A DNA stretch of 64,000 bases, from positions 32,459 through 96,458 of the forward strand of contig DYOU01000001.1 of the NCBI GenBank assembly GCA_020720365.1, read 5' to 3'. Positions 1,654 through 64,000 of the stretch are shown piece after piece. The notes beneath the pieces are model-generated. The model was given only the letters and a program-made list of their open reading frames with translations, ran no database searches and was not told the DNA's origin. This DNA comes from Candidatus Elulimicrobium sp. (lineage in GTDB: Bacteria > Omnitrophota > Gorgyraeia > Zapsychrales > Fredricksoniimonadaceae). Position 1 is the first letter of the stretch; every line of letters starts with the position of its first letter. A program made the position numbers and the translations under genes.

Positions 1654-3219
1654 TTGCTTATGAACAGTTACCGGTTTTTGATGGATTTTGTGCAGACTTA
1701 TCGGGGATGGTTGTTGCTGACGGTTATTCTTGCCGTGACCGTGGCAGCGTACTATCCTTCACTTTTTCACTGCGCCCGTGCGGATCAGGTATCTTTTCTG
1801 GCTGAATACGGGATGCAAACGTCCTGGAAGGATTTGACGTTCGGAGTGATGGACTATAATCGTACGCGGCTTTTCTCTCCAGGTGATTCGCTTCTTTTTC
1901 GTCCGTTGTTGTTTGTATTTCTGGGTATTCAGAAGATATTTTTCGGGTACAATTTCTTTTGGTGGCAGGTTGTGGCTTTGGGGGCGCATCTTTTTACGGT
2001 GGCCGCTTTATGGCGTTTGTTATTGCGTTGGGGAGGGCCCGGAAGCCATGCGGCAGCGGCAGTATTTTCTCTTTTCTTTTCCTTGTTATTCGTGAATGTT
2101 GAGGCAGTTGTCTGGCATGGGATTACACCGTATGTATTTTTTGCGGGACTGATCATTCTGGCATTGGAACGCCTGGAGAAATATATTGTTTCTGATGGCG
2201 AGGATCGTGTTTCCCTGGCGGAGTGTACAGGGATACTGTTCGCGGCAGTGCTGATCTATGAAGCGGCCGTTTGGTATATCCCGTGTTTCTTTATGGTTAC
2301 GATCCTTCGTTTGTTCCGCTTGAAACAGGTGAAATTTGGAGTCAGGGCGATGGTGTTGTTATTGCCGTTGGCGGTTTATTTAACGTGGAGCTTGGGCCAT
2401 TTTTTCTTGTCAGGCGCTGTTGTGGAAGGAGAGGTAGAGGTAATGATGTCGGTCTCGATCTTGGGATTGACGGCAGAGAATTTCATTAAATTAGTGAAAT
2501 GGTTCTTGGCTGGCGGACTTTTTCTTCAAGGCCAGGATGTTCGTCCGTTCAGCCGTATGATGGTGGCACCGGAGCTTTTGGGATGGGATTGGCCGATGTT
2601 CAGCGGTTTTATCTCCCGATGGACGGGGGCGGCAGCGGCCGTGTTTATGCTGGCCGCGGTCATTGTTTCGTTAAGGAGTTTTCGGGAAGGCTGGCGGGTT
2701 GGTTTGCTTGGCCTTATGTTGACGGGGTATGTGTTGATCTTAACGGTTGGGCGTGCGAATGTCCGCGCCGATGGGACGGGGCTTGAAAGCAGCCTGTATT
2801 ATTTCTATAACTTCTGGGTCCTGGCAACAGTTATCCTGTTTGTGACGGTGCAAGGCCTTTTTAAAGCTGATGGCTGGCGGAGGTTTCTGGCTGCAGGGCT
2901 TGGCATGGCCGTTATTGTTTTTTCTTTGTTCAATGCCTGGCAGATCCGTCAATTGACAGCCCGGATGGCGCGGGACCATCAGGCGTGTATCATTCTGGTA
3001 AAAACAGTGGATGCTCTTATTGCTGAACACAGTAAAGAAACCGGGTTCTCTTTTTATGTTTCGCCGAGTGTCCCCGGTAATTTCATTGTTTCCTGGTTAG
3101 TGAAGAAGGGCGATCCGGCCGGCCGGCAGTACACCTATGCCGAGGCGCTTTACCCGTTGTATTTCAATGCCGTCGCGCCGAAATACATTATTCATAATGG
3201 CAGTCGGCAGGGCCTGTGA
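1654..3219 (+). CDS. Large polytopic membrane protein (521 aa), probable GT-C-type glycosyltransferase/glycan-modifying membrane protein
   Basis: ORF track. More than 10 predicted hydrophobic helices, aromatic-rich loops. Divergent from the minus-strand membrane protein and upstream of a sugar-nucleotide modification trio. Confidence 0.55.
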   Translation: MLMNSYRFLMDFVQTYRGWLLLTVILAVTVAAYYPSLFHCARADQVSFLAEYGMQTSWKDLTFGVMDYNRTRLFSPGDSLLFRPLLFVFLGIQKIFFGYNFFWWQVVALGAHLFTVAALWRLLLRWGGPGSHAAAAVFSLFFSLLFVNVEAVVWHGITPYVFFAGLIILALERLEKYIVSDGEDRVSLAECTGILFAAVLIYEAAVWYIPCFFMVTILRLFRLKQVKFGVRAMVLLLPLAVYLTWSLGHFFLSGAVVEGEVEVMMSVSILGLTAENFIKLVKWFLAGGLFLQGQDVRPFSRMMVAPELLGWDWPMFSGFISRWTGAAAAVFMLAAVIVSLRSFREGWRVGLLGLMLTGYVLILTVGRANVRADGTGLESSLYYFYNFWVLATVILFVTVQGLFKADGWRRFLAAGLGMAVIVFSLFNAWQIRQLTARMARDHQACIILVKTVDALIAEHSKETGFSFYVSPSVPGNFIVSWLVKKGDPAGRQYTYAEALYPLYFNAVAPKYIIHNGSRQGL

Positions 3220-3294
3220 GCGATCAAAGCGCAACATTAACGCAGAAAATCTTTGTCTGACGGTTGTGATACGGGATAGTTTAAAGAAAACACT

Positions 3295-3322
3295 TTGTTA
3301 TCAGCCTCCTGGTCTATATAAT
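3295..3322 (+). promoter_or_regulatory. Sigma70-like promoter (TTGTTA-16nt-TATAAT) upstream of 3352 gene; SD AGGAGG at 3341-3346
   Basis: Read directly from sequence: ttgtta tcagcctcctggtcta tataat, then aggagg 5 nt before GTG 3352. Confidence 0.4.
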
Positions 3323-3351
3323 ATATAAAAATTTTTAAACAGGAGGTTGCT

Positions 3352-4368: not shown

Positions 4369-4868
4369 GTTTCTTCCAGCATCCTACCGCATTAGTCAGT
4401 GAACAGGCGCATATCGGGGAAGGGACCCGTGTTTGGGCTTTTGTTAATATTATGGACGGAGCGGTTATCGGCCGGAATTGCAATATATGCGATCATTGTT
4501 ATGTTGAGGGTAAAGTCCGCCTGGGAGATCAGGTGACGATCAAGAATAATGTGCCTGTCTATGATGGCGTTATTATTGAAGATAATGTATTTGTCGGGCC
4601 GAACGCGACTTTTGTGAATGATCGTCATCCGCGCAGCCGCAGTTCAGGCTGGACGCTGGAGCCGACATTGCTCAGGAAGGGTGCGTCTATCGGGGCTAAT
4701 GCGACGGTGATGTGCGGCGTGACGGTAGGTGAGTATGCGGTCATTGGGGCCGGTTGTGTCGTGGTACGTGACGTTCCTCCGCATGCGGTCATGGTGGGAA
4801 ATCCTGCACGGCAGATCGGTTGGGTCAATAAGGATGGGCAGCGTGTGAACCCTGAGGAGCTTGTTTGA
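4365..4868 (+). CDS. Left-handed beta-helix (hexapeptide repeat) sugar N-acetyltransferase, WbpD/WlbB-like
   Basis: Repeating [LIV]G-x-x-x-x hexapeptides (VIGRNCNICDHCYVEGKVRLGDQVTIKNNVPVYDGVIIEDNVFVGPNATF). Start overlaps upstream stop. Confidence 0.75.
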   Translation: MSFFQHPTALVSEQAHIGEGTRVWAFVNIMDGAVIGRNCNICDHCYVEGKVRLGDQVTIKNNVPVYDGVIIEDNVFVGPNATFVNDRHPRSRSSGWTLEPTLLRKGASIGANATVMCGVTVGEYAVIGAGCVVVRDVPPHAVMVGNPARQIGWVNKDGQRVNPEELV

Positions 4869-18266: not shown

Positions 18267-18404
18267 ATTGATTTCTCCTTTCTTGAGGTTTTTTGTAACC
18301 TGTAATTATATTAACACGCGATAAAATAGATTCAAAAAATATTTCATTTTATTTAAGAAGAATTTAAATAAAAATATTTTTTTCTCGACGGGGGGAAAAA
18401 CATA

Positions 18405-19511
18405 GTGATTCAACCGCTTTCTGTGTATGTCCATATTCCTTTTTGTAAAAAGAAATGTCCCTATTGTTCGTTCGCAGTGGCTGTTGGCCAAGGGCATTAT
18501 GAGAAAGATTATTTAGCCGCGATCGATCGTGAGGCCATGTCGTATGGGGCTCGGGTTTCTACAGTTTATATTGGCGGCGGCACCCCGTCATGTTTGTCTC
18601 AGGAAGGGGTGGAGTATTTGTTCGCAAGTATCTTTCAGCGGTTTACAGTAGTTGAGAATGTTGAAATTTCTTTTGAAGTGAATCCTGACAGCATAGATCG
18701 CAAGAAGGCCGCGTTGTTAAAGAAAGCCGGAGTGAATCGTATCAGCCTCGGCCTGCAATCTCTGGACGATGATGCGTTGGTATTATTGGGGCGGACACAC
18801 TCTGCTGATGATGCGTTGCGGGCATTGGGGATTTTACGTGAAGCCGGTTTTGATAATATTAATCTTGATTTCATGTATGGTTATCCCGGGCAGAGTCGAG
18901 AGGGCGTAAGGAAAGATCTCTATCGTGTTTTGGCGCTGGGCTGTGAGCATTTGTCATTGTACGCGCTTAACATTGAAGAGCGCAGCCTTTTTTTTGCCCG
19001 GCGCGTGGAGGTAGATAATGACGCGCAAGGTGAGCTTTATGGAGAAGTTTGCGGGCAGGCAGAGGCTGCCGGTGTTTATCAATATGAGGTGAGTAATTTT
19101 TCCCGCCCGGGCTATGAGTCCCGTCATAATTCAAACTACTGGCAGGGAGGCGAATATGCGGGCCTGGGCCTGTCGGCTCATTCGCATATAGCCGGAGAGC
19201 GGTTCTGGAACGCCGCGGCATTGCCGGAGTATTTACAGCTAATGAAAGTGTCTGGAACGGCCAGGGTCGGCGGAGAGCGGCTTTCAGGCCCCGAGAAACT
19301 TGTTGAAGAATTCCTTTTCGCCCTTAGAATGAATAAAGGCTGCGACCTGGGAGCGCTGGAAATAAGGTTTGGTTCTGAAATGCCGATGGAGAAGAAAGAA
19401 ACCCTGGAAAGTTTGATCGAAATGGGCTTGCTTGAGGAAGAGGGCATGCTGATCCGGGCGACACCTCGGGGACGCTTGCTTCTCGATGAGATCGCGGCTA
19501 GGATTATTTAG
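18405..19511 (+). CDS. hemW: Radical SAM heme chaperone HemW (HemN-like, oxygen-independent coproporphyrinogen-III oxidase family)
   Basis: VYVHIPFCKKKCPYCSFA (CxxxCxxC), GGGTPS; 368 aa, GTG start. Confidence 0.8.
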   Translation: MIQPLSVYVHIPFCKKKCPYCSFAVAVGQGHYEKDYLAAIDREAMSYGARVSTVYIGGGTPSCLSQEGVEYLFASIFQRFTVVENVEISFEVNPDSIDRKKAALLKKAGVNRISLGLQSLDDDALVLLGRTHSADDALRALGILREAGFDNINLDFMYGYPGQSREGVRKDLYRVLALGCEHLSLYALNIEERSLFFARRVEVDNDAQGELYGEVCGQAEAAGVYQYEVSNFSRPGYESRHNSNYWQGGEYAGLGLSAHSHIAGERFWNAAALPEYLQLMKVSGTARVGGERLSGPEKLVEEFLFALRMNKGCDLGALEIRFGSEMPMEKKETLESLIEMGLLEEEGMLIRATPRGRLLLDEIAARII

Positions 19512-46044: not shown

Positions 46045-46071
46045 CTAGCAAAGAAGCTTTAAGAGTGCTAA
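46045..46071. promoter_or_regulatory. CIRCE-like operator CTAGCAAAG-N9-GAGTGCTAA (right arm perfect, left arm 5/9) between -10 and hrcA start
   Basis: Position relative to promoter and hrcA matches classic CIRCE placement; arms are asymmetric. Confidence 0.4.
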
Positions 46072-46082
46072 TTGGAGTTTAT

Positions 46083-46814
46083 ATGGTTCGAGTTAATCCT
46101 CGACAGCGGAAAGATATTGTTTTGGGAATGGTTATTCAGCAATACATTTCCAGGGAAGTGCCGGTCAGTTCGGCCTTCATTGCTGAGGAGTATGAGAAGG
46201 ATATCAGTTCAGCGACTATCCGGAATATTCTGGCTGATCTTGAATCCGACGGATATCTAACGCATCCGCATACCTCTTCAGGGCGCGTCCCAACACAGCG
46301 CGGGTATCGGTATTATGTGGATTTCCTGATGCGCGAGATCGTCCTTGTTGAAGAAGAGCGCCGGCAGGTTCAGCGGGAATATGAACAGGGCGTGCGCGAG
46401 TTAAAACATCTGATGGAATTAACGTCGGAAGTGATCTCGGACCTGACGCACTGCGCGAGTATTGTAACGCTGGAAGGTTATCCGCGGACGTACTCTTTTC
46501 GCGGCACGAACTATCTGGCTGAAGCCGTGGGGGTTTACGGAGTGCAGAAGATGGCGTGTATCCTGAAAGCGCTGGAGGAAAAAGAGCGGATCCTGGAAGT
46601 CCTTCGGCGGGATCTGGACAAGAAGATCAAGATCTATATTGGCCAGGAAACGGCTTGCGAGGATTTTGACGATTGTGCGATGGCGGTATCGCATTTTCAG
46701 ACGCGCATGGGAGCATCCGGACACATAGCTGTATTAGGGTCAACGCGGATGAATTATGAACGGGTGGTTTCTACCCTTGAATACGTATCAGATCTGATGC
46801 GGCAATTAGGATAA
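46083..46814 (+). CDS. hrcA: Heat-inducible transcription repressor HrcA (short form, ~243 aa)
   Basis: SSATIRNILADLESDGYLTHPHTSSGRVPTQRGYRYYVD is the HrcA signature. ATG 46083 preferred over ORF-track GTG 46065, which lies inside the CIRCE-like element. Confidence 0.8.
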   Translation: MVRVNPRQRKDIVLGMVIQQYISREVPVSSAFIAEEYEKDISSATIRNILADLESDGYLTHPHTSSGRVPTQRGYRYYVDFLMREIVLVEEERRQVQREYEQGVRELKHLMELTSEVISDLTHCASIVTLEGYPRTYSFRGTNYLAEAVGVYGVQKMACILKALEEKERILEVLRRDLDKKIKIYIGQETACEDFDDCAMAVSHFQTRMGASGHIAVLGSTRMNYERVVSTLEYVSDLMRQLG

Positions 46815-46821
46815 TATTATT

Positions 46822-47331
46822 ATGGCAGATGAAGATATTATTAAAGAAGAAGTTGTTCCGCCTGTGATCGATCCGGTGGAGGAGAAGGTGCGCTATCAGC
46901 AGGAATTGGGTGAAGCGAAGGATAAGTATATCCGGCTCTTTGCCGAATTTGACAATATGCGTAAACGTCACGAGCGTGAGCGTAGCGAGCTGATCAAATA
47001 CGCGCATGAAGAAGTCATCATTGAAATGCTCGGATTTTATGAGGATTTTGAGCGTTGTGTCGCGGCGGCGGGAGAAAATTCTGCCGGGAGCATGGTCTTG
47101 TTAAAAGGGATTGAAATGGTCCTTAAACGCATGCAGGAATTGCTCAAGAAATATGATGTCGCGGAGATCGACGCTATGGGTAAGAAGTTCGATCATGTGT
47201 ATCATGAAGCCTTGATCGCGGTGGATTCTCCGGAGACTGAGGATGGAGCGGTCCTGGAGGTCTTTCAAAAAGGGTATACGATGGGTGGAAGGGTTGTACG
47301 TACAGCCAAGGTGAAGGTATCGAAGCATTAA
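46822..47331 (+). CDS. grpE: Nucleotide exchange factor GrpE
   Basis: [12 protein letters not shown]... and C-terminal [14 protein letters not shown] pattern; 169 aa; position between hrcA and dnaK. Confidence 0.88.
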
Positions 47332-47371
47332 TGACGGGATTTTCCCGTCTTTTAAAAAGGAGGCAGTGAGT

Positions 47372-49303
47372 ATGGCAAAATTTATTGGTATTGATCTGGG
47401 AACATCGAATTCAGCGGCGGCGGTCATGGAAGGCGGCCGTCCGGTGATCATTCCGTCAGCCGAAGGGGCTGGTGTGGCGTCGGGAAAAGCTTTCCCGTCA
47501 TTTGTAGCTTTTACGAAAGAAGGCGAGCGCTTGGTCGGTGAACCTGCCCGCCGTCAAGCTGCGGTGAATTCCCAGGGGACTATTTACGCGGCGAAGCGCA
47601 AGATGGGGACGGATCACAAGTTCAGTGTGAATGGCAAGGATTTTACGCCGCAGCAGGTATCCGCGTTCATTCTGCAGAAGATCAAGGCAGACGCCGAGAA
47701 GTATTTGGGTGATACCGTTGAGGGTGCCGTGATCACAGTTCCTGCGTATTTTAATGATAATCAGCGTCAGGCCACCAAGGACGCAGGAGAGATCGCAGGG
47801 CTTAAAGTCATGCGTATTATCAATGAGCCGACGGCTGCGTGTTTGGCGTATGGTATTGACAAAGCCGGCAAGGAACAGAAGATCATGGTGTTCGACCTTG
47901 GCGGCGGCACACTGGACGTGACGATCCTTGAAATGGGCGAAGGCGGTACATTTGAAGTCCTTTCCACGAGCGGAGATAATCTTCTCGGCGGTACAGATAT
48001 GGATAATGCCCTTATTGCGCATATTGTCAGTGAATTCAAGAAAGAGACCGGTGTTGATCTTTCGCAGGACAAGATGGCTTTTCATCGTTTACGTGAAGCG
48101 GCGGAAAAAGCCAAAGTCGAGTTGTCCAGTACCGTTCAGACAGAAGTTAACCTGCCGTTCATTACGGCCGATGCTTCTGGCCCGAAACATTTGGCATTGA
48201 CGCTTGACCGTGCCAAACTGGATTCCCTGGTGGGGCCTATTGTTGAGCGTTGTCGCGGACCGATCCGTCAGGCGTTGAAAGACGCGACAGCGAAGCTGGG
48301 CGAAGACGTCAAGGTTGACAAGATCATCATGGTTGGCGGTCCGACACGTATGCCGATCGTTCAGGATTTTGTGGAGAAAGAAGTTGCGCAAAAGATCGAG
48401 CGCGGGATTGATCCGATGGAATGCGTGGCGCTCGGCGCGGCTGTTCAGGCGGGTATCATCAAGGGAGATGTGAAGGATGTCCTGCTTCTTGACGTAACGC
48501 CGTTGACACTGGGTATTGAGACCATGGGTGGTGTCATGACGAAAATGATCGAGCGCAACACAACGATACCGACGAAGAAATCGAATGTCTTTTCGACAGC
48601 GGAAGATAATCAGCCTGCGGTGACGATCCGTGTCCTGCAGGGAGAACGACAGATGTCGAATGACAATGTAGAGCTTGGCCGGTTTGACCTTGTAGGTATC
48701 CCTCCGGCACCCCGCGGTGTTCCGCAGATCGAGGTTACCTTTGATATCGACGTGAACGGGATCGTTCATGTGCATGCGAAGGATAAAGCCACAGGCAAGG
48801 AACAGTCTATCCGTATCACGTCTCCGAAGAAATTGTCGGATGATGAGATCCAGAAGATGGTGAAAGAAGCCGAGAAATACGCGGAAGAGGACAAGAAGCG
48901 TAAAGAAGAAGCCGAGCTGCTGAATCAAGCCAATAATCTGGTATATTCGACGGAAAAATCGCTCAAGGATTATGGGGATAAAGTGCCTCAGGCGGAACGT
49001 GAAGCGATCATGAAAGAACTGGAAGCGCTGAAACAGGCGATTACGGATAAAGCGGCGGACCGTATCAAGGCGGGCATGGAGGCATTGACCAAAGTCAGCC
49101 ATAAGCTGGCAGAGGAAATGTATAAAGCCACAGCGGCTCAGGCCGGAGGCCCGGGCGCACAGGAAGGCTGCGGTGGCGGGTGTGGAGATAGTGCCGGTGC
49201 GGGAGCTCAGGATGGGGCGCCTTCCCAGGAGCCGAAAGCCGACGCGGCCCAAAAGCGTGAAGGGGTTATTGACGCTGACTTTGAAGTCAAGGATGACAAA
49301 TAA
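47372..49303 (+). CDS. dnaK: Molecular chaperone DnaK (Hsp70)
   Basis: [31 protein letters not shown] and other Hsp70 signatures. SD AAAGGAGG 8 nt upstream of ATG 47372. Confidence 0.95.
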
Positions 49304-49311
49304 AAGTAATT

Positions 49312-50442
49312 ATGAAAAAAGACTACTACGAAATACTAGGTGTTAAAAAAGACGCGTCAGTTGCCGATATCAAAAAAGTATATCGGCAGCTGGCCATGCG
49401 TTATCATCCTGACCGTGTTGAAGAAGCGGAGAAGAAGCAGGCCGAGGAGCGTTTCAAGGAGATCTCGGAAGCTTATGGCGTGCTGTCTGATGCTCAGAAA
49501 CGCCAGACCTATGATCAGTACGGCCATTCCGGGATCGATCAGAATTATACGTCGGAAGATATTTTCCGCGGCGCGGATTTCTCCAGTGTTTTCGGGGAGA
49601 GCGGGCTGGACGATATTTTGGGCCAGTTCTTCGGTGGTTCAACGGGAGGATCTCGTCGCCAGCAGCGCCGGCCGGCTCGCGGAAGGGATATTCAGTATGA
49701 GGCGGAGCTGACGCTGGAAGAGGTATTCAAGGGTGCCCGTAAGCCGATCAAGGTTCCGCGTAATGAGGTATGCCCTGACTGCAAGGGCAATGGTTCCAGG
49801 AACGGAACGGCTTTTGCGGAGTGTCAGACGTGCGGCGGCCGCGGTCAGGTGATGATGAATAGCGGTTTCTTTCGCATGGCGCAGACCTGTCCGGCTTGTC
49901 ATGGCGAGGGGCGCATTACGAAAGAAATATGCCCCAAGTGTAGTGGACGGGGGGCGCTCAAGCATGTGCGTGAGATCGAAGTTAATTTTCCGCGCGGCCT
50001 GGATAATGATTCCCAGATGCGCCTGCGTGGAGAAGGAGAGGTCGGACCGGGAGGCCCTGGAGACCTGTATCTTTTTATCCGCGTTAAACAGCATCCTGTT
50101 TTTCGTCGCTCAGGGAAAGACCTTGAACTTGACCTTCCGGTCAGTTTCGTGAAAGCTGCGCTCGGTGGTGAAGTTGTTGTACCGACCATTGAAGATCAGA
50201 TCACCATGAAAGTTCCGGCAGGAACAGAGAGCGGAAAAGTTTTTCGCGTCAAGGGCAAGGGGATGCCGGACCTGCGTGATGAGAATGCGTTCGGGGACAT
50301 TTATGCCCGTGTCATGATCGATGTTCCCAAAAAACTTTCCAATGAACAGCGCCGGTTGCTGGAAGAGTTTGCCAGGGCGAGCGGGGAAGTGCTGGCGGAA
50401 AATGAAAGCATTAAAGACAAGATCAAAAAAGTTTTTAAATAA
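49312..50442 (+). CDS. dnaJ: Co-chaperone DnaJ (J domain, G/F region, four CxxCxGxG zinc-finger repeats, C-terminal domain)
   Basis: DYYEILGV...HPD, CPDCKGNG/CQTCGGRG/CPACHGEG/CPKCSGRG. Confidence 0.93.
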   Translation: MKKDYYEILGVKKDASVADIKKVYRQLAMRYHPDRVEEAEKKQAEERFKEISEAYGVLSDAQKRQTYDQYGHSGIDQNYTSEDIFRGADFSSVFGESGLDDILGQFFGGSTGGSRRQQRRPARGRDIQYEAELTLEEVFKGARKPIKVPRNEVCPDCKGNGSRNGTAFAECQTCGGRGQVMMNSGFFRMAQTCPACHGEGRITKEICPKCSGRGALKHVREIEVNFPRGLDNDSQMRLRGEGEVGPGGPGDLYLFIRVKQHPVFRRSGKDLELDLPVSFVKAALGGEVVVPTIEDQITMKVPAGTESGKVFRVKGKGMPDLRDENAFGDIYARVMIDVPKKLSNEQRRLLEEFARASGEVLAENESIKDKIKKVFK

Positions 50443-52642: not shown

Positions 52643-53572
52643 GTGAGCAGGGACACTCTCGTTAGTGTAGTCATTCCTACCTGCGGCCGAAATGATTATT
52701 ATATTTCTTGTATTCAGTCGCTTCTTCAGCAGGCGCATTCCTTCTTAGATATTATTGTGGTGGAGAATTCAGGGGATCTGGCTCTTGAGGGGAAGGCCCT
52801 GGTGCTTTGCCCGGCGGCAAGGGTTGTTCAGGCTCCGCAGGGATCATCGTATTGCGATCTAATGAACACAGGGATCGGGTTAAGCCGTGGTGAGCATATT
52901 CTTTGCCTGAATGATGATGTAACGCTTGATCCGGCGTTTCTTGAGAATGCGTTGAAAGGTTTTACGCTGGATCCTCGCATAGGGATGGTCACAGGCAAGG
53001 TGTTAAGGCAGGATCGAACGACGCTGGATACGACAGGTTTGTTCCTGGGTATTTGCAGGACAGCACAAGAAAGAGGGTATGGGCAGGCGGACCGCGGGCA
53101 ATTCCAGAGGGAGGGGTTTATTTTTGGCGTGTGTGGGGCGGCTGCTTTTTATCGTAAGACGATGCTTGATGAGATCAGGGAAGGTCAAGATTGGTTTGAT
53201 CCTCGTTACCGGTTCTTTTATGAAGACCTTGATATTGCATGGAGAGCGCAGAGAAGAGGTTGGAACGCTTACTACATACCTGATGCGGTGGCGTATCATG
53301 TGCGCGGAGGTTCTATCCGTGGCAACGGAGGGCAGGGGAAGCCATTTGCCCGGAAATATTTAAGTGATGAAATGCATGCAGCCTTGATCCGGAACCGATA
53401 CAGGACAATCATGAAGAATGAAACGTTGGGCGGGCTTATCCTTCATTTGATCCCGATCATCCTGTATGAGCTTTGGGCATGGGCCTATATTATTTTCTTC
53501 AGGCCGAATGTTGTGAGGGTATTTGTTGCGGAGCTTTGTTCAGTAAAAGGCCTAGCAGAATACACCAGATAA
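52643..53572 (+). CDS. Family 2 glycosyltransferase (rhamnosyl/galactosyl-transferase-like GT2)
   Basis: VSVVIPTCGRNDY, LNDDV (DxD) motifs; 309 aa. Confidence 0.75.
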   Translation: MSRDTLVSVVIPTCGRNDYYISCIQSLLQQAHSFLDIIVVENSGDLALEGKALVLCPAARVVQAPQGSSYCDLMNTGIGLSRGEHILCLNDDVTLDPAFLENALKGFTLDPRIGMVTGKVLRQDRTTLDTTGLFLGICRTAQERGYGQADRGQFQREGFIFGVCGAAAFYRKTMLDEIREGQDWFDPRYRFFYEDLDIAWRAQRRGWNAYYIPDAVAYHVRGGSIRGNGGQGKPFARKYLSDEMHAALIRNRYRTIMKNETLGGLILHLIPIILYELWAWAYIIFFRPNVVRVFVAELCSVKGLAEYTR

Positions 53573-54662
53573 AACATGTTTCCGGAAAGAAGAATGTAAA
53601 GTCGATGCAGTTATGGAGAAGAAAGGCCAGTGATCCGCATAGCAGCCCTGCCGTCACAGGTTTGTCCGCGGCTGTTTCCAGGGCACGAAATCCTGAGCGG
53701 ATAAGTGTTGTTATCAGAAATATAAAAGAAGCGAAACCCGCCAGGCCTGTTTCTGCCCATAGCTGAAGAAAGTTGTTATGCGCATAGCGGGCGTTGATCA
53801 GGTCAAGATGGCCGAGCCCGATCCCGAACAAGAGATGTTCCTTGATGATCAGGGCTGTCTGCAGCCAATAACTTAAACGCATTCGCATGGAGTAGTCTGG
53901 CTGGAAATGTTGGAATTGGGATGATGTTCGGAGGGCAAAGATGGCCGCTGCCAGAGTGAATAGCCCGATCAGCAGTACGGTTATAAGGAGCGTAATGGTG
54001 CTGTCTTTTTCTTTCTTTTGTTTGAACGCGAAGAAAATAGCCGCGGCAGCCAGTAAACAGACGATCGCTCCGATAGATTTGGAGAGCAGAAGGGCGAAAA
54101 ACAGCGGCAGGACGACCCAGGCATTGTCTTTCAGTGTAAGGGCAAGAGGAATGATCATAATGAGGTATCCCGCGAGTGTATTGGGAGTAATAAAAGGTGT
54201 AAACACCCTTTGCTGGGCAATGAAGTTACGGGCAACCGGATCAACGGTCTTTGTTTCATTCAGATAGTTTTTAATATTCTGGAATCCGCTGAAAAACTGA
54301 TTAAGATCCAGGAAGCTGATGAAGACCGCCGTCAGAATAAGGGTTATGATGACGGTGTTCTTTTGATCTTCTGCCAAAGACCGGCAAACGAAGAACAGCA
54401 GAATGCCATTCAGATATTGCAACAGGGTTAAAGCAGAGAGCAGCTTGTTGTGAGAGGGGATTAATGAGAATAAAAGAGCGGCTATGAATAACAGGACTGC
54501 CGTTGTCAATCTTCGATCGTCCCATAAAGGTGTTTCCTGAATGAATATCCAGCTGGCCAGAAAAGTGGCAAGCGCGATAGAATGCATCAGGTTGAACTCA
54601 GGGAAGGCTGTTGAGCAGATGAACGGACGGATAATAATCAGAAGTAATAGCAGAATAAACAT
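53499..54662 (-). CDS. O-antigen ligase/Wzy-like polytopic membrane protein (Wzy_C-type)
   Basis: ~10 hydrophobic helices; pattern with conserved R/H-containing periplasmic loop region (YAHNNFLQLWAETG). 3' end overlaps the convergent GT2 gene. Confidence 0.55.
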   Translation of the reverse strand: MFILLLLLIIIRPFICSTAFPEFNLMHSIALATFLASWIFIQETPLWDDRRLTTAVLLFIAALLFSLIPSHNKLLSALTLLQYLNGILLFFVCRSLAEDQKNTVIITLILTAVFISFLDLNQFFSGFQNIKNYLNETKTVDPVARNFIAQQRVFTPFITPNTLAGYLIMIIPLALTLKDNAWVVLPLFFALLLSKSIGAIVCLLAAAAIFFAFKQKKEKDSTITLLITVLLIGLFTLAAAIFALRTSSQFQHFQPDYSMRMRLSYWLQTALIIKEHLLFGIGLGHLDLINARYAHNNFLQLWAETGLAGFASFIFLITTLIRSGFRALETAADKPVTAGLLCGSLAFLLHNCIDFTFFFPETCFIWCILLGLLLNKAPQQIPSQHSA

Positions 54663-54747
54663 GAATTTAAGTATACAATATCTTTAAGTTGTTTCCTATA
54701 ACATCACAATATTTTCAATGATTAATGGATCATTCAAGGATGAATTA

Positions 54748-54912
54748 ATGACATGGCTGCTGATGTTCTTCTGATCATTTGCCCTGTTTGGGCTGTTGAT
54801 TTACCTTCTTCAGGCCTGCTTATATCGCGGCTTATTTAGAGAAGAAGGGTGTTCCATGCGACATTCTGGATTTAAACCTTGTTATGTACGAGTCTAAATT
54901 CATGTAATGTGA
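54748..54912 (+). pseudogene. Frameshifted N-terminal remnant of a B12-binding-domain radical SAM gene
   Basis: Frame a: MAADVLLIICPVWAVDLPSSGLL... stops. +2 frame continues PAYIAAYLEKKGVPCDILDLNLVMYESKFM*, the canonical start of a B12-binding domain (LP.LGLAY.AAYL.K.G..V...D). No downstream domain; a related intact gene starts at 62090. Confidence 0.55.
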
Positions 54913-55204
54913 CGGCGTCAACTGATCCTGAGATCTTTCCGGAAAAGTTCGGGATAATATTTCCAGAAGGGAAAAGCCCGTGCGAGTATTGGGAAAGTTC
55001 AGACGGGACGAATACGTTTGATGTCAGAAAGCGCAGGGTTTTGGAGATCTTTCAGTTATTAAAAGAACTGAAAGTTACAACATATTATGTAGGTATTTAT
55101 GATGGAGATAGTCCTCTCTAAGAGGCTTGTCGGAAAGGTAGAATGTGTGGCTGGTATAAGTATTTGTGCGGATATTGTTAGATAGGCCAGTCCGGTCAGG
55201 AATA

Positions 55205-56365
55205 ATGCCCGAAAAAAAGATTAATGTACTTTATGTGATCACCAAGCTTGAATTAGGCGGCGCTCAAACGCATGCGCTCGATCTGATTCGGAGTATTGAC
55301 CAGAACAAGTTTAATGTATTTCTTTTCTCTGCGCGGGAAGGGCTGTTAGTTGAGCAGGCGTTGAATATTCCCGGATTGAATTTTTATCGCTCGTCTTTTC
55401 TGGAACGGCGTATTCATCCGGTTAAAGATGTTTGTACGGTTATTTCTTTATATTTCTATATCAAAAAGCATAAGATTGATTTCATTCATACACATAGTTC
55501 AAAGGCTGGTATTTTAGGAAGGTTCGCGGCGAAAGCGGCGGGATTGAGAGGCATTGTTCATACCGTTCATGGTTGGAGTTTTCATGAATATCAGTCGAAG
55601 GTTGTGTATAATATCTTTCTTTATTTAGAGCGACTTTGCGCGCGATTTACTGATAGACTGATCGTTGTTTCTCTGCTTGACCGGGAGACGGGTGTTCAGC
55701 TGGGGGTAGGGCCGCCAGAAAAGTATAGACTCATTCGATGCGGGTTGGATGCAGAGCGTTTTAGTGTCAAAGGGCCGCTCGCGAGTGCGCGGGCAGCATT
55801 GGGGTTATCTGAAACTGATCTTGTGGTTGGGATGGTGGCCTGTTTCAAGCCGCAGAAAGATCCCTTAAGTTTTGTTCGATTAGCTGCGGCTGTCAGAGAA
55901 AAGCTCCCGCATGTTAGATTTTTCTTGGTTGGTGACGGAGTCTTGCGGGGGGAGATCGCGCGTTTGATTGGAAGTTTTGGCCTTCAGGAGAATATTCTTT
56001 TATTGGGATGGCGCCGGGATATGCCGTTGATTTATGCGGCCATGGACCTGTGCGTATTGACGTCATTATGGGAGGGCTTGCCGATCGCTATCATGGAGGC
56101 GATGGCGTCAGGCGTTCCCGTGATTGTTACGGATACCGGAGGTGTTCGGGATGTTGTCCGGGATGGAGAAACGGGCTATTTGGTTAAAGCCGCGGATGTT
56201 GAGGCTATGCGGGATAAAGTGATATTGTTATTGAAAGATCCGGAGTTAAGGGAAGATATAGCGGGAAGAGCCGTGGAATGGATCAGGAATGATCTGTTTT
56301 CTTTAAGGCATATGATGCATAAAGTTGAGGGCTTGTATCAGGAGCTTTGGATTAAGCATGGGTAA
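55205..56365 (+). CDS. Family 4 (GT-B) glycosyltransferase
   Basis: EGLPIAIMEAMASGVPVIVTDTGG (E-x7-E region) typical of GT4; 386 aa. Confidence 0.8.
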   Translation: MPEKKINVLYVITKLELGGAQTHALDLIRSIDQNKFNVFLFSAREGLLVEQALNIPGLNFYRSSFLERRIHPVKDVCTVISLYFYIKKHKIDFIHTHSSKAGILGRFAAKAAGLRGIVHTVHGWSFHEYQSKVVYNIFLYLERLCARFTDRLIVVSLLDRETGVQLGVGPPEKYRLIRCGLDAERFSVKGPLASARAALGLSETDLVVGMVACFKPQKDPLSFVRLAAAVREKLPHVRFFLVGDGVLRGEIARLIGSFGLQENILLLGWRRDMPLIYAAMDLCVLTSLWEGLPIAIMEAMASGVPVIVTDTGGVRDVVRDGETGYLVKAADVEAMRDKVILLLKDPELREDIAGRAVEWIRNDLFSLRHMMHKVEGLYQELWIKHG

Positions 56366-58667: not shown

Positions 58668-59486
58668 ATGATGAAATTATGGAATAGTTTTAAAAGAATG
58701 AAATTCTGTCAATTTCTCTCTGCCGTGGCTGGGTTTCAACAAAGAGAAGTTTTGAGGAATCTGGTCAATAAGAATTTGAAAGCCAAATATGCCGGATCCA
58801 TGCTGGGCATGTTGTGGGCGTTCATTAATCCTGTTTTACTGGCATGTATAGTAGGATTCATATTTACAAACATCCTTAAAGTGAATACGCCGAATTATTA
58901 TTTATACATTTTATCAGGGATGCTGCCCTGGACATTCTTTGCGACATCGATACAGGAAGCTTCAGTATCTATCCAGGGGCATGCGAGTCTTTTGAAACAA
59001 TTCCCTTTAGCCAGGATCTTTATTCCGGTTGCGATCGTTATATCAAATTTTATTCTTTTGTTATTTAGTCTGACGATTTTACTTCCCCTTTTCCTTATTG
59101 TTGATTTGAAAGTTATCACCTTGTTGCCATTATTAGTGTTTGCTCTGATCATATTATTGTTGTTCACGCTCGGATTATCTTTGATGTTCGCGGCCATATG
59201 CGTTGAATGGCGTGACGTGCAGCAGGCATTAAACACATTGCTGGTTTATTGGTTATGGTTGACGCCGATATTTTATAGTGCACAGATGGTCCCAAGGGAT
59301 TATAAAATTCTTTTAGACATTAATCCTATTAATTTTTTCTTGATCTTGTACAGGAATTCTTTATTTGATGTAAAAACTCCTTCTTTAGGTGTTTTGGGGA
59401 TCCCTGTGATCATGGCATTGGGAGCCTTATGGTGCGGCATTGTTTTGTTTCATAAGAAAGAAGGGGGGTTTTTAAAAAGAATATGA
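58668..59486 (+). CDS. ABC-2 type polysaccharide export permease (Wzm/KpsM-like)
   Basis: Six hydrophobic segments, ABC-2 signature region. In-frame ATG 58668 gives ~272 aa, typical for Wzm; ORF-track start 58545 is probably too far upstream. Confidence 0.75.
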   Translation: MMKLWNSFKRMKFCQFLSAVAGFQQREVLRNLVNKNLKAKYAGSMLGMLWAFINPVLLACIVGFIFTNILKVNTPNYYLYILSGMLPWTFFATSIQEASVSIQGHASLLKQFPLARIFIPVAIVISNFILLLFSLTILLPLFLIVDLKVITLLPLLVFALIILLLFTLGLSLMFAAICVEWRDVQQALNTLLVYWLWLTPIFYSAQMVPRDYKILLDINPINFFLILYRNSLFDVKTPSLGVLGIPVIMALGALWCGIVLFHKKEGGFLKRI

Positions 59487-61786
59487 AGATGGAAACAGAT
59501 ATTGCCATTCAATTAAAGAATGTTTTTGAGAATTATGAAATTGAAATAAAGACGGATGAAAAAGTGATCCGTGAGAGATATTCAGTTCTGAATGATATTT
59601 CATTGACGGTAAAAAAAGGTGAATGCCTGGCTGTCATTGGAGCTAACGGAGCGGGCAAGTCAACGATTTTGAGGATTATTGCGGGTCTCCTGAAGCCTGA
59701 AAAAGGTGAAGTTACGGTGAACGGCCGGGTGGGCAGCCTCCTGGATCTGGGAGCGGGATTTCATCCCGAGTTGACAGGCAGGGATAATTTGCGTTTGAAC
59801 GCGAGTCTGTACAATTTTAACCGGAATGAGTTTGAAGCAAAGTATGAAGAGATCCTGAAGTTCGCTGATATTGGCAAGTTTATTGATGTGCCGGTGCGTT
59901 GCTATTCGCAAGGCATGTATGTGCGTTTAGCGTTCAGTTTGGCTATTCATGTTGATCCGGACATTCTTTTGATCGATGATTGCCTTTCTGTTGGGGATGA
60001 TAATTTTCAGTTAAAAAGCATGGATAAAGCGCTGGAGTTAAAGAGCAAGAATAAAACCATTATCTTTGTTACACATAATTTCAGTTTGGCAAGACAGTTG
60101 TGTGAACGTTGTATTTATATTAAAGATCATCAGATCGTTCAAGATGCCGCTCTGGAAGAGGTTGTGTCAACGTATTTGGCACCGTCCAAGATCGATAAAG
60201 AGCAGTATCATTATTTAAGCGCCAAGATCCATGAAATAGAAAGTTACGAGGAAAGTCAGGAAGCAAAGCGGCAACAGCAGGAACAAGAACGAAGAAGGTC
60301 TGAAGAAGAGGCGGCATTCAATGAAATGATGGGGCGTCGGCAGTTGGAAGAAGAAATTTTCCAGAAAGCGCTGAGTGAGCGGCGCAAAGCCGAGGAGATT
60401 GCGTGGGGGCAGGCCGTGGCAGCACGGCGCGCGGAAGAAGAAGAGTTATGGAGAAATGAAGTGGCAGCGCGGCGCGAGGCGGAAAGAGATCGGGAGTTAT
60501 TAAAGAAGAATCACCAGAGAACGAAAGAGGTTTCTTTGTATGCGGGAGCGCTTAAGTTGGCCGTTGCTCCTTCACAAATCAGATTGTTATGTGATCATGT
60601 GAATGTGATACGCAATGCGGGCATTCAGACGCTCTTTCTAAAAGATAATATATTGGTTTGTTCCGCAACGGCCGAATGGCGGATAAAGAAGATCTCTGAA
60701 GCGCAGATCGCCTGTTTCTTAAGGTGGCCGGGATTGGAGGGCGTGGTACAGCGCTGGCATTTCATTCGTTTGGAGAATGGGGTTACAGGGCTTTGCATTT
60801 CCATGAGAGTTGCGGCATCCGTTTGTATTGAGAATGAACGTGTGGAATTCTGGCCGAATACAACAGGTGGAGTTCTGGAGGATGCTCAATGGGGCAATAA
60901 GTCCAGGTTTGTATTTTTGGGGGATCAGGGTAAAGTGCAGGTTGAAACATATCAAGATGATTGTGTTTCCGGTTCGGTTGATCAGGATGATGGTCGTCGT
61001 GTACCATATTTCTTAAAAACATGTGCTGATACTATTCTGAGTCCGGAACGAGCATCCTATCGGAAAGTTGTCTTTAATGGCGGTATCTTTCTTGGAGACA
61101 AGAGCGCTGAAAAGCGTCCGATGGTTCTGGAAAGAAGAATCTTGAGATCAGAAAATCTTGCGGTTGATTTTCAGGAGGGATGTTGTCAGATCATTTTGGG
61201 TGAGAAAGTAATAACAACCGGATTAGGTCTTTATACATCTGTTTTCTCACACGGTCTTTGGCGGGACTCAACGCAGGCTAAATGGAAGGTGGTATCTTTT
61301 TCAGGGAATAAGTTGACTGTAAGAGGGGCTTGGCCATGGATGCCTGTTATTCAGGAATGGCAGGTTGAGATCGCAGGGCAAAACAGGATCTTGTTAAATG
61401 TAAGAATGAAGATATTAAAAGATATCATGATCGATATGCAGGAGACGGTGTTGATGTTGCCGCAGGAGTATTCATCATGGAGCGATGGGAATGTATTTCA
61501 AAGATTCTCAGAAAATATGACCAGTGATGATTTCTTCAGACTTTGTTCCTTGATAAAGGAAGCGGATGGATCGGCTTCTGTTTCTGTTAAAGGAGAGGGT
61601 TTGCCGGAGATCAATTTTAAACCAGGTTTTATACAGGGGCATCGAATGATCGTTGAGAATTCAGCGCATATTTACAAGACGCAGGCTCGTCTTATGCATT
61701 GTTTAAAGGGATATCAGAAGGAAAAGGGAAGCGTTAAGGCCGGGGAAATGGATTTTTTTAAAGGGATTCTTACTATTAATAATTAG
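59483..61786 (+). CDS. ABC transporter ATP-binding protein (Wzt-like) with ~110-aa Glu/Arg/Ala-rich coiled coil and ~400-aa C-terminal extension made of two related beta-rich (Trp-rich) domains
   Basis: Walker A GANGAGKST, signature YSQGMYVRLAF, Walker B ILLIDD within first ~250 aa. Residues ~260-360 EEAAFNEMMGRRQLEEEIFQKALSERRKAEE... Then duplicated region (AEWRIKKIS...LRWPGLEG...QRWHF vs AKWKVVSFS...GAWPWMPVIQEWQV). 767 aa total. Confidence 0.8.
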   Translation: MKMETDIAIQLKNVFENYEIEIKTDEKVIRERYSVLNDISLTVKKGECLAVIGANGAGKSTILRIIAGLLKPEKGEVTVNGRVGSLLDLGAGFHPELTGRDNLRLNASLYNFNRNEFEAKYEEILKFADIGKFIDVPVRCYSQGMYVRLAFSLAIHVDPDILLIDDCLSVGDDNFQLKSMDKALELKSKNKTIIFVTHNFSLARQLCERCIYIKDHQIVQDAALEEVVSTYLAPSKIDKEQYHYLSAKIHEIESYEESQEAKRQQQEQERRRSEEEAAFNEMMGRRQLEEEIFQKALSERRKAEEIAWGQAVAARRAEEEELWRNEVAARREAERDRELLKKNHQRTKEVSLYAGALKLAVAPSQIRLLCDHVNVIRNAGIQTLFLKDNILVCSATAEWRIKKISEAQIACFLRWPGLEGVVQRWHFIRLENGVTGLCISMRVAASVCIENERVEFWPNTTGGVLEDAQWGNKSRFVFLGDQGKVQVETYQDDCVSGSVDQDDGRRVPYFLKTCADTILSPERASYRKVVFNGGIFLGDKSAEKRPMVLERRILRSENLAVDFQEGCCQIILGEKVITTGLGLYTSVFSHGLWRDSTQAKWKVVSFSGNKLTVRGAWPWMPVIQEWQVEIAGQNRILLNVRMKILKDIMIDMQETVLMLPQEYSSWSDGNVFQRFSENMTSDDFFRLCSLIKEADGSASVSVKGEGLPEINFKPGFIQGHRMIVENSAHIYKTQARLMHCLKGYQKEKGSVKAGEMDFFKGILTINN

Positions 61787-61796
61787 GAGGGCAGGT

Positions 61797-62093
61797 ATGA
61801 GGACGGCATTAATGTTAAAGAACTCAGCGCATTTTATTTTGTTGGCAGGTATGATTATGGCCATTTATTTCTTTCCTGTTAATACGTTTCAGTTCTGGTG
61901 TGTGATCGGCCTGACGGGAGTATTGTGGTTGATCGTAAGGCTTTTGGCTAATATAGGCCAGCTTGTATATGAAATGCGTCATGAGTCAGGTCGGTCTTTG
62001 GCGAATATGGAGCGTTCTCTCCATCAGATCAATGCTACGTTGCAGGAAATGAGGGATTCTATTGATTCCAAAGGAGCCAAGGACGCTGCATGA
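61797..62093 (+). CDS. Small 2-TM membrane protein (98 aa) translationally coupled between wzt and the radical SAM gene
   Basis: Hydrophobic segments FILLAGMIMAIYFF and FWCVIGLTGVLWLIV; stop overlaps the next ATG (ATGA). Confidence 0.5.
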   Translation: MRTALMLKNSAHFILLAGMIMAIYFFPVNTFQFWCVIGLTGVLWLIVRLLANIGQLVYEMRHESGRSLANMERSLHQINATLQEMRDSIDSKGAKDAA

Positions 62094-64000
62094 AGATCGT
62101 ATTGGTTAATTTACCATGGAAAAGAAAAGGCTTATGGGGTGTGCGGGCCGGTTCAAGGTGGCCGCATATTAAGAGTGCATTGGAGAAGGATTATTCCCCC
62201 TTTCCGTTCTTTATGGCTTATGCGGGGTCTTTGTTAAAACGGGAAGGGTTTGAGGTTGAGGTGATCGATTCTTTGGCCCAACAATTACCTCTTGGCCGAT
62301 TACTTAAGCTTTTGAATGATAGTCAACCGGACTTATTAGTTGCGGAAACATCAACGCCATCGTTGGCGAATGATCTGGCTATCCTGCAGAAACTGCCGCA
62401 AGGGTTGGCGGTGGCTTTATGCGGACCGGAGATCAATATTCGTGACGGACAATTTCTGGCGAGACATCCGCGTATTACATACGCGTTTGTGGGGGAGTAT
62501 GAATATACACTTCTGGAATTGGCGCAACGTTTAAAAGCCAGGCAGGATCTGGCCGGTTTATGTGGTTTGATCTATATGAATAACGGGGTGTGTCAAACAA
62601 ATCCGGCGAGGCCTTTGCGCGAGGATCTGGATGATCTGCCATGGCCTTTAAGGGATGGGCTGCCGATGGAAAAGTATAAGGATACTCCCGGAGGGATCCC
62701 TTCCCCCAGTGTTCAGATGTGGTCGTCACGGGGGTGTCCGTATCATTGTTTATTTTGCAGTTGGCCGCAGTTGATGTATCAAAGTCATCGCTACAGGACG
62801 CGTAATGTGATCGATATAGTGGATGAGATGGAATATCTTGTGACTGTAAAGGGTTTCAAGTCGGTTTATTTTGATGATGATACGATGAATATTGGCAAGT
62901 TACGCATGATGGTATTGGCGAATGAGATTAAACGCAGAGATCTGAATGTGCCTTGGGCGATGATGGCGCGGGCGGATTTGATGGAAGAGGATGTTTTGGA
63001 AAATCTGCGCGCGGCCGGATTAACGGCTGTGAAATATGGAGTAGAGTCAGGCAATCAAACGCTTGTTGATCGGAGTAATAAGAAACTGGACCTTCAGAAA
63101 CTTGAACGTATGGTTCGTTTTACCAAATCCCTTGGAATTAAAACGCATTTAACGTTTACTTTCGGGCTTCCGGGAGAGACGCAAGCGACGATTCAACAGA
63201 CAATTGACTTTGCAAAAGAGCTGGATCCTGACTCACTTCAGTTTTCGATCACAACGGCATTCCCGGGAACACAATATTTTAATGAATTGGAAACATGCGG
63301 GCATATTGTTTCAAAAGACCTTAAAGATTATGACGGGAGTTCCAGGGCGATGCTGCGAACGGATTCTTTAAGCGCCGGAGATTTGCGGAGAGCGAAACAG
63401 CTGGCGGATAAAGCCTGGCAGATGCATGTATGGAGGACCAGACCGCAGGCAAGAACCACAGAAGGTTTGCTTGGGAGATCTATCAGGAACATTAAGGATT
63501 ACGGTTTTCAGTCGTTTTTATCAAGAGGAAGTTTGTTTCTCAGGCATCGGTTTCGGATGCCAAAGTTTGAGCGGATCAATAAATTCTTGAGTTTTGACTG
63601 GCGAATAACGTTGGCACGCCCATTGGGTCAGTGGGAGAAAATAAAGAAGAATGTGTTGAATTTAATGGGTGTGCAGCATGGTTCGTATGCTTTTAAAGGG
63701 CCGGACTGTGTCCAGATCGATCTCACCAGTAATTGTAATAATAATTGTGTGAGTTGCTGGTGTAACTCTCCACTCCTGCAGGCGCGGGCGTATAAAGGCG
63801 TGAAAAAGTACAAGACATTGCCGACACAGCTTGTTCTTTCTTTGATTGATGACCTTGTCGAGATGGGTACAGGCGAGCTTTATTTCTCCGGCGGAGGAGA
63901 GCCTTTTATGCATCCGGATATCATGACTATTATGGCTCATGCCAAAGCGCGCGGCGCATATTGTTGTATTAATACGAACTTTACACTTGTTAATGAAGAA
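62090..64000 (+). CDS. B12-binding-domain radical SAM protein fused to a second radical SAM (MoaA/SPASM-like) domain; 3' end beyond window
   Basis: Manual translation: MKIVLVNLPW...FMAYAGSLLKREGFEVEVID (B12-binding region). First CxxxCxxC: GCPYHCLFCSW (~aa 215). Then TIM-barrel region, then second core QIDLTSNCNNNCVSCW plus FSGGGEPFMHPD (~aa 545-600). No stop through position 64000. Not in the ORF track because it lacks an in-window stop. Confidence 0.75.
   Translation, partial: MKIVLVNLPWKRKGLWGVRAGSRWPHIKSALEKDYSPFPFFMAYAGSLLKREGFEVEVIDSLAQQLPLGRLLKLLNDSQPDLLVAETSTPSLANDLAILQKLPQGLAVALCGPEINIRDGQFLARHPRITYAFVGEYEYTLLELAQRLKARQDLAGLCGLIYMNNGVCQTNPARPLREDLDDLPWPLRDGLPMEKYKDTPGGIPSPSVQMWSSRGCPYHCLFCSWPQLMYQSHRYRTRNVIDIVDEMEYLVTVKGFKSVYFDDDTMNIGKLRMMVLANEIKRRDLNVPWAMMARADLMEEDVLENLRAAGLTAVKYGVESGNQTLVDRSNKKLDLQKLERMVRFTKSLGIKTHLTFTFGLPGETQATIQQTIDFAKELDPDSLQFSITTAFPGTQYFNELETCGHIVSKDLKDYDGSSRAMLRTDSLSAGDLRRAKQLADKAWQMHVWRTRPQARTTEGLLGRSIRNIKDYGFQSFLSRGSLFLRHRFRMPKFERINKFLSFDWRITLARPLGQWEKIKKNVLNLMGVQHGSYAFKGPDCVQIDLTSNCNNNCVSCWCNSPLLQARAYKGVKKYKTLPTQLVLSLIDDLVEMGTGELYFSGGGEPFMHPDIMTIMAHAKARGAYCCINTNFTLVNEE

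Follow-up and report, generated by a model that had tools for sequence, protein, structure and literature searches.

Class B (cobalamin-binding) radical SAM enzymes include the TIGR03975 RiPP C-methyltransferases, PhpK, CysS (9n1b), HpnJ/HpnR, BchE, and AprD4. An uncurated subfamily from the glycan clusters of Omnitrophota and other candidate phyla (P0122, P0121, P0045, P0044, P0035, and the protein encoded at L117:3182-4636) shares the two-domain layout of the class B radical SAM methyltransferases, in which a B12-binding domain (PF02310) is combined with a radical SAM core (PF04055); its gene context suggests a glycan as substrate and not a peptide, lipid, or tetrapyrrole. Members of this subfamily carry no annotation more specific than "B12-binding domain-containing radical SAM protein". 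Among curated models TIGR03975 fits them best, with 129-155 bits (cut-off 281.85), and their best PDB matches are 9ccb and CysS (E ~1e-9). Because all curated scores lie far below their cut-offs (e.g., 155 versus 282 bits), the subfamily falls outside every curated equivalog. A second type of described system is the truncated or frameshifted gene remnant, which is left by reshuffling in the O-antigen and capsule clusters of well-studied bacteria. In Omnitrophota chromosomes, LPS and capsule glycosyltransferases are reported to be among the hypervariable loci (10.64898/2026.06.07.730766, preprint).

The window analyzed here is a stretch of 64,000 nucleotides, and the region of interest (54663-55204) is the whole 542-bp gap between a Wzy_C-family gene and a GT4 glycosyltransferase gene. 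The Wzy_C-family gene on the left flank points away from the gap. On the right, the GT4 gene heads a block of GT4, WecA-like, amine oxidase, ABC2, and ABC ATPase genes that is syntenic across many Omnitrophota loci. The gap is, with high confidence, the non-functional relic of one class B radical SAM gene that formerly stood directly upstream of the GT4 gene. Of a gene of ~470-545 codons, ~47 remain from the 5' end and ~77 from the 3' end (Table 1). Like the intact subfamily, the relic has an N-terminal motif (icPpWgv.mPPlGlAYLaaYLkkkG...lDlN) and a C-terminal domain (LN.CNv...pe.fGi..p...W...DG.NTf..RkrR) in that order, lies directly upstream of a GT4 gene, and co-occurs with a radical SAM/SPASM gene of the type found at position 62090 of the window (the 62090 gene). 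Unlike the intact subfamily, it is frameshifted and lacks the membrane tail as well as ~350 codons from its center, which would encode the Rossmann core, the CxxxCxxC motif, and the TIM-barrel core. Two lesions account for most of this state: an internal deletion of ~1.05 kb, which spared only codons 1-47 and the ~77 codons at the 3' end and changed the reading frame at the junction, and a 1-bp deletion at 54818, which shifts the frame within the N-terminal piece. The 3' membrane tail of the closest relatives is absent too. The gene loss probably took place in situ and fairly recently.

Table 1. Features of the gap, its flanking genes, and the radical SAM genes of the window (window positions; family HMM of 611 nodes)
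Feature	Position	Strand	Basis and remarks
Radical SAM gene	18372..19508		Family HMM E = 7.5e-5
Wzy_C / O-antigen-ligase family membrane protein gene, 387 aa	53499..54662	-	Pfam PF04932, 60.7 bits
Candidate ribosome-binding site AAGGA	54736..54740	+	12 nt 5' of relic ATG; putative, read from the sequence only
Relic piece N-a, codons 1-22 (MAADVLLIICPVWAVDLPSSGL), start of B12-binding domain	54753..54818	+	Frame 1; family HMM positions 13-34, E = 4e-4 (fragment 54744-54836)
1-bp deletion site, ancestral CTG GCT to CTGCT	54818..54819	+	Frame 1 to frame 3
Relic piece N-b, codons 23-47 (AYIAAYLEKKGVPCDILDLNLVMYE)	54818..54892	+	Frame 3; family HMM positions 35-60, E = 5.3e-6 (fragment 54800-54904)
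Internal-deletion junction	54887..54892	+	Family HMM match jumps from 60 to 406; frame 3 to frame 1
Relic piece C, 77 codons + stop (TSLNSCNVTAST...YYVGIYDGDSPL, stop)	54888..55121	+	Frame 1; family HMM positions 406-472, E = 1.8e-11 (fragment 54876-55118)
Relic stop-to-GT4 spacer, 83 bp	55122..55204	+	Without trace of ~60-aa membrane tail
GT4 glycosyltransferase gene, ATG at 55205	55205..56365	+	Pfam PF00534 + PF13439
Intact B12-binding radical SAM gene (62090 gene)	62090..64000, runs off window	+	Pfam + NCBIfam; family HMM positions 139-399, E = 7e-53

The family of the relic was found through its neighbor. Scans of genomes and metagenomes anchored on the GT4 gene gave 160 loci, nearly all of them Omnitrophota MAGs and at most 58% identical; neither the Wzy-like nor the GT4 protein is on record with an identical sequence. 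With 58% as the best GT4 identity, a same-species comparison is impossible; no relative of the same species or genus was found among these loci, so that what stood at this position in the ancestor is reconstructed rather than observed. The first intact homologue, in locus L117, came from the metagenome scan. When peptides of the gap were compared with the fetched loci by local tblastn, L117 matched twice on the same strand, with the N-terminal peptide at 3200-3325 (E = 1.4e-7) and the peptide of an 80-aa ORF at 4385-4594 (E = 9.6e-6). Both matches fall within a single 484-aa ORF (L117:3182-4636) that carries PF02310 and PF04055. In the reverse direction, tblastn of this L117 protein against the window recovered the 62090 gene (core only), 54888-55112, and 54756-54818. 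The L117 protein itself has 138 relatives at E <= 1e-20, many labelled as Omnitrophota B12-binding radical SAM proteins.

A family HMM was built from the top 92 intact relatives of the L117 protein, all unrelated to the window, and was searched against all 2619 stop-to-stop six-frame fragments of the window. Besides the three colinear pieces in the gap, the only window matches below 1e-3 are genuine radical SAM genes. One of these, the third radical SAM gene of the window (18405-19511, 368 aa), gives a weak, core-only match and is unrelated to the relic. The preliminary description of this DNA had recognized a decayed B12-binding radical SAM fragment in the gap, and the three colinear matches bear out that reading. 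The pieces are short (22, 25, and 77 codons), and AT-rich intergenic DNA might by chance resemble the short and common PPLGxAYLAAxL motif of B12-binding domains. In keeping with chance, the repaired N-terminal 51-mer is sub-threshold in both Pfam (19 bits) and NCBIfam (13 bits), and the conceptual peptide of 123 aa, joined from the pieces, found nothing among 5.8e9 proteins in a word-indexed search. However, the family search and phmmer did find relatives, so that the blank reflects the limit of the word filter rather than an absence of relatives. Against chance stand the joint significance of three colinear HMM matches, which is far past chance, the E-value of 3.5e-23 for the C-terminal piece among 1.84e9 proteins, and homology at the nucleotide level to the intact gene in locus L167. 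Chance resemblance, refuted by the family HMM, phmmer, the identities to P0122, and the L167 nucleotide alignment, has a negligible probability.

The N-terminus of the relic is spelled by two reading frames, as had been proposed. In frame 1, an ATG at 54753 opens MAADVLLIICPVWAVDLPSSGL, which is followed by LISRLI and a stop; a peptide translatable from this ATG could thus have 28 residues only. Frame 3 reads ..PAYIAAYLEKKGVPCDILDLNLVMYESKFM to a stop at 54905-54907, and the continuation of the N-terminal text in this frame is AYIAAYLEKKGVPCDILDLNLVMYESKFM, ending at the same stop. The two N-terminal pieces abut exactly at family HMM positions 34/35 in different frames. At the point of change, blastn against the intact L167 homologue opens a one-base gap (GGCCTG-CTTAT in the window versus GGACTGGCTTAC), and the missing base is a G. 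Pfam PF02310 matches the repaired 51-mer at profile positions 8-37 (19 bits, E = 0.0013; cut-off 32.1). Only the first ~30 positions of this profile survive in the relic, whereas intact relatives carry the full domain. The NCBIfam model TIGR03975 also matches the 51-mer below threshold (positions 1-43, 13 bits, E = 0.02).

The C-terminal piece sits within a mechanical 80-aa ORF (54879-55121, frame 1, with a TTG start at 54879), which had been taken as possible further debris and is the C-terminal end of the same gene. Residues 397-471 of the L117 radical SAM protein, compared with the whole window by tblastn, match 54888-55112 (E = 5.8e-7). When the 80-aa ORF was searched exhaustively with phmmer against 1.84 billion representative proteins, 34 matches emerged, led by P0121 (E = 3.5e-23, 55% identity) and P0122 (E = 1.5e-18). 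Each of the 34 is part of a protein of 243 aa or more, so that no small protein standing alone is among them. The matched segment of ~70 residues (LN.CN...W..DG.NTf..RkrR) is without a Pfam model; it is repeated two to four times in proteins of 1300-2300 aa (P0123, P0124, P0127, P0131), apparently once per radical SAM module. Its distribution is that of a segment which behaves as a conserved, unnamed C-terminal domain of the radical SAM subfamily to which the relic belonged.

Between the N- and C-terminal pieces, ~345-360 codons (~1.05 kb) are missing, and with them have gone the remainder of the B12 domain and the entire radical SAM core with its CxxxCxxC motif. In a multiple alignment (A1) the relic is aligned at both ends with a 374-column hole between them, which spans the Rossmann core of the B12 domain, the SRGCxxxCxFC motif, and the GIESGS region; a search for PF04055 in the gap gave no match. 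Amino-acid homology of the N-terminal piece extends to the codon at 54890-54892 and nucleotide homology of the C-terminal piece to the 3' part of the L167 gene starts at 54889, which places the junction within 54887-54892. This small overlap is compatible with a microhomology-mediated deletion. Since the deletion itself alters the reading frame (3 to 1), the TAA at 54905 is simply frame 3 read past the junction out of frame and is no separate lesion. The preliminary description had attributed inactivation to a frameshift followed by a stop; the 1-bp frameshift at 54818 holds, yet the main lesion is the internal deletion of ~350 codons. With the core and its CxxxCxxC motif removed, the relic is derived from a member of the class B radical SAM enzymes and is not a working member, and its remaining coding content permits no catalytic product. 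The closest relatives P0121 and P0122 run on for ~60 residues as a hydrophobic tail ending in FPGG, of which a permissive tblastn of 55080-55400 found nothing.

An assembly or sequencing artefact would give a similar picture if the gene were intact in the real genome and both the 1-kb hole and the 1-bp frameshift had been made by metagenome assembly. The window probably derives from an uncultured Omnitrophota genome, as its closest relatives are all MAGs, and the 1-bp deletion, taken on its own, could be a read error. However, the junction is without flanking repeats that might collapse an assembly, both flanks are in normal synteny with relatives, and two independent lesions together with an absent 3' tail resemble decay more than a single misjoin. 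No repair of a sequencing error could rebuild the gene within 542 bp. An artefact is accordingly regarded as highly improbable, and a deleted gene is the preferred reading.

The closest intact relative of the surviving pieces is P0122 (545 aa, encoded in L167), which shares 64% of residues with relic codons 1-47 and 47% with the C-terminal piece; at the nucleotide level the relic and the P0122 gene are 67% identical for both pieces. Median identity of the relic to the family is 37% for the N-terminal piece and 24% for the C-terminal piece, compared with 39% and 23% among intact members. Strongly conserved columns are kept at 11 of 14 N-terminal and 4 of 5 C-terminal positions, the clearest departure from the family consensus being PPLG to PSSG, and the homologous pieces contain no in-frame stops. 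Intact genes of the window and L167 have comparable identities (65% for the 62090-type radical SAM protein, 59% and 70% for two epimerases). An identity to P0122 within the range of these neighbors, together with the lack of in-frame stops, suggests, for pieces this short, that inactivation was recent relative to the divergence of these lineages. The recent remodelling of the cluster proposed earlier is thus plausible, on evidence that is indirect only.

The preliminary description had also taken the relic for a paralogue of the 62090 gene, but the two proved not to be closely related. The two are alike in superfamily and in gene cluster, but the 62090 gene encodes an HpnJ-like B12 domain, a radical SAM domain, and a second radical SAM/SPASM module, and the relic belongs to a different subfamily. 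Likeness is at the superfamily level only, with the 62090 protein ~25% identical to the intact L117 protein in the radical SAM core alone and without similarity at either terminus. The suggested check, tblastn of the 62090 N-terminus against the gap, gave no match, and neither did the complete 62090 protein match the gap when compared by tblastn with the gap itself and with all of the window. A close or recent duplicate of the 62090 gene is ruled out by this blank and by the core-only identity. In relatives, moreover, the two radical SAM types are adjacent but distinct genes (L161, L164, and L167), which also argues against a recent duplication. Homologues of the 62090 gene (50-65% identity) adjoin P0045, P0035, and P0122 and are directly upstream of each. 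Genes of the relic's subfamily usually occur in the company of 62090-type genes in Omnitrophota glycan loci.

Intact family members lie in clusters that carry the GT4, WecA, amine oxidase, and ABC genes also present in the window, but the order of genes around them varies between loci. L167 has a 62090-type radical SAM/SPASM gene, P0122, a GT4 gene 15 bp further on, a second GT4 gene, a GT2 gene, two epimerase genes, and a wzy gene on the minus strand. L164 has an amine oxidase gene, ABC2, a gene for a 1900-aa fusion (ABC::B12::rSAM::SPASM), P0035, and a GT4 gene after 113 bp. L161 has a gene for a 62090-type protein (1401 aa), P0045, and a GT4 gene after 444 bp; L163 and L166 have similar layouts. 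In L117 the family radical SAM gene is followed by wzy on the plus strand, GT4, WecA, amine oxidase, ABC2, and ABC ATPase genes, an order that equals that of the window apart from the position and orientation of wzy. A comparison with related genomes had been advised in order to see whether an intact gene sits at this place. Intact members do precede a GT4 gene in L167, L164, and L161. In the relatives that share the layout of a minus-strand wzy and a plus-strand GT4 gene (L001, L004, and L082), gaps of 47, 29, and 101 bp contain no relic, as compared with 542 bp in the window. Shuffled sequences resemble the short wzy/GT4 gaps of L001 and L004 as well as the two ends of the window gap do.

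Such variability is also what would be expected if the N- and C-terminal pieces were end-stubs from one or two recombinations that swapped a variable part of the cluster. Gene order near the family differs in every locus examined (L117, L161, L163, L164, L166, and L167), GC content declines to the right of ~53500, and LPS and capsule glycosyltransferases belong to the hypervariable Omnitrophota loci (10.64898/2026.06.07.730766). Among the first 120 matches, the N-terminal piece is closest to the P0045/P0044 group and the C-terminal piece to P0035/P0002. However, P0122 matches both pieces well, and the difference in best match is within noise for pieces so short. Since both pieces keep the order and orientation of the intact gene and meet at a clean joint, a single deletion is simpler, and a mosaic produced by cassette exchange is judged unlikely. 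An identity gradient against L001 was considered as a sign of recombination and rejected, because the 91% identical gene is DnaK, a slow-evolving member of the hrcA-grpE-dnaK-dnaJ operon. The gap had been described as AT-rich, and its GC content is indeed 39.1%, compared with 49.1% in the window overall. Genes on its right side have 38-46% GC, so that this richness is regional and not specific to the gap.

A remnant of this type might have been co-opted, with the 80-aa ORF serving as a small protein or the relic supplying the GT4 operon, or the divergent wzy-like gene, with a promoter or 5' leader. The C-terminal piece is an uninterrupted ORF that keeps the conserved residues W, R, R, and G, sigma-70-like hexamers occur at 55059-55103 and 55179-55206, and divergent genes require promoters somewhere in the gap. 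Yet all 34 matches of the ORF lie inside larger proteins, promoter-like sites in a promoter and terminator scan of the gap (6) are not in excess of the shuffle expectation (3.3 +/- 2.0), an Rfam scan of the gap matched no RNA families, and relatives cope with gaps of 29-101 bp. Co-option is very unlikely. The wider proposition that the relic is not inert, its C-terminal piece acting as a protein or as a promoter or leader, and that the lineage is in addition a natural knock-out of a cobalamin-dependent, glycan-modifying radical SAM enzyme whose normal partner is the 62090-type enzyme, is granted a similarly small chance; if it were true, comparison of the glycans of this lineage with those of P0122-carrying relatives would reveal the reaction of the enzyme. 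For the inert relic that is preferred here, the 80-aa ORF should be annotated as a pseudogene fragment rather than a hypothetical protein, and the gap should not be taken as a regulatory or novel element.

Like the remnants of O-antigen and capsule clusters, the relic is a disrupted stub, placed where a conserved part of a surface-polysaccharide locus meets a variable one. It differs from them in that a repeat scan of the gap found neither IS-like nor flanking repeats, with none at the deletion junction, and in that its host is an uncultured Omnitrophota-like bacterium. The relic is an ordinary pseudogene remnant of the usual turnover of surface-polysaccharide loci and is unsurprising to a specialist; the hypervariability of Omnitrophota glycan loci (10.64898/2026.06.07.730766) fits this turnover. 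Its meaning is that the surface-glycan cluster of this lineage formerly held, beside the GT4 gene, a second cobalamin-type radical SAM gene that has since been lost. As judged solely from its superfamily and genomic context, the lost enzyme probably modified the glycan by a radical, cobalamin-dependent reaction of the methylation type, and the glycan of the lineage would now be without this modification. The window ends inside the 62090 gene, and in view of the synteny with L161, L164, and L167, a loss of function can be claimed for the gap only and not for the genome; an intact copy of the family could follow the 62090 gene just past position 64000.

The subfamily itself and its giant radical SAM fusion partners are a more interesting subject than the relic. 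In the window, the genes for the ABC ATPase (767 aa) and the 62090 radical SAM protein are separate, with a 98-aa ORF between them (59483-64000). In L164 (1314-7016) their homologues are fused into one protein of 1900 aa (ABC_tran::B12::rSAM::SPASM), which has 50% identity with the window ABC ATPase in the N-terminal part of the latter and 56% with the 62090 protein. The 62090 homologue of L161 (2799-7004) is a 1401-aa multi-module radical SAM/SPASM protein, and a further 62090-type homologue lies at L167:65-2155. Pfam searches of the ~500-aa C-terminal extension of the ABC ATPase (window 60233-61783) and of the 98-aa ORF gave no match. Residues ~545-767 of the ABC ATPase recur several times, at 24-26% identity, inside the giant radical SAM fusions of L161 and L164, and the extension may be an undescribed domain that links an exporter to radical SAM modules. 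Upstream of the intact radical SAM gene in L117 (1-3010) are a sulfatase fragment and genes for an ABC ATPase, a CobW/HypB-type GTPase, and a small Fe-S (PF04060) protein, which may assist the radical SAM protein as accessory genes or in the delivery of its metal cofactor.

The glycan cluster of the window begins straight after dnaJ, with two epimerase/dehydratase genes at 50483, and the hrcA-grpE-dnaK-dnaJ heat-shock operon (46065-50442) lies directly upstream; L001 has the same junction. To the left of the gap, the GT2 gene (52643-53572, plus strand) and the wzy-like gene (53499-54662, minus strand) are convergent, and their mechanical ORFs share 74 bp (53499-53572). This overlap of 3' ends is also present in L001 and L004.
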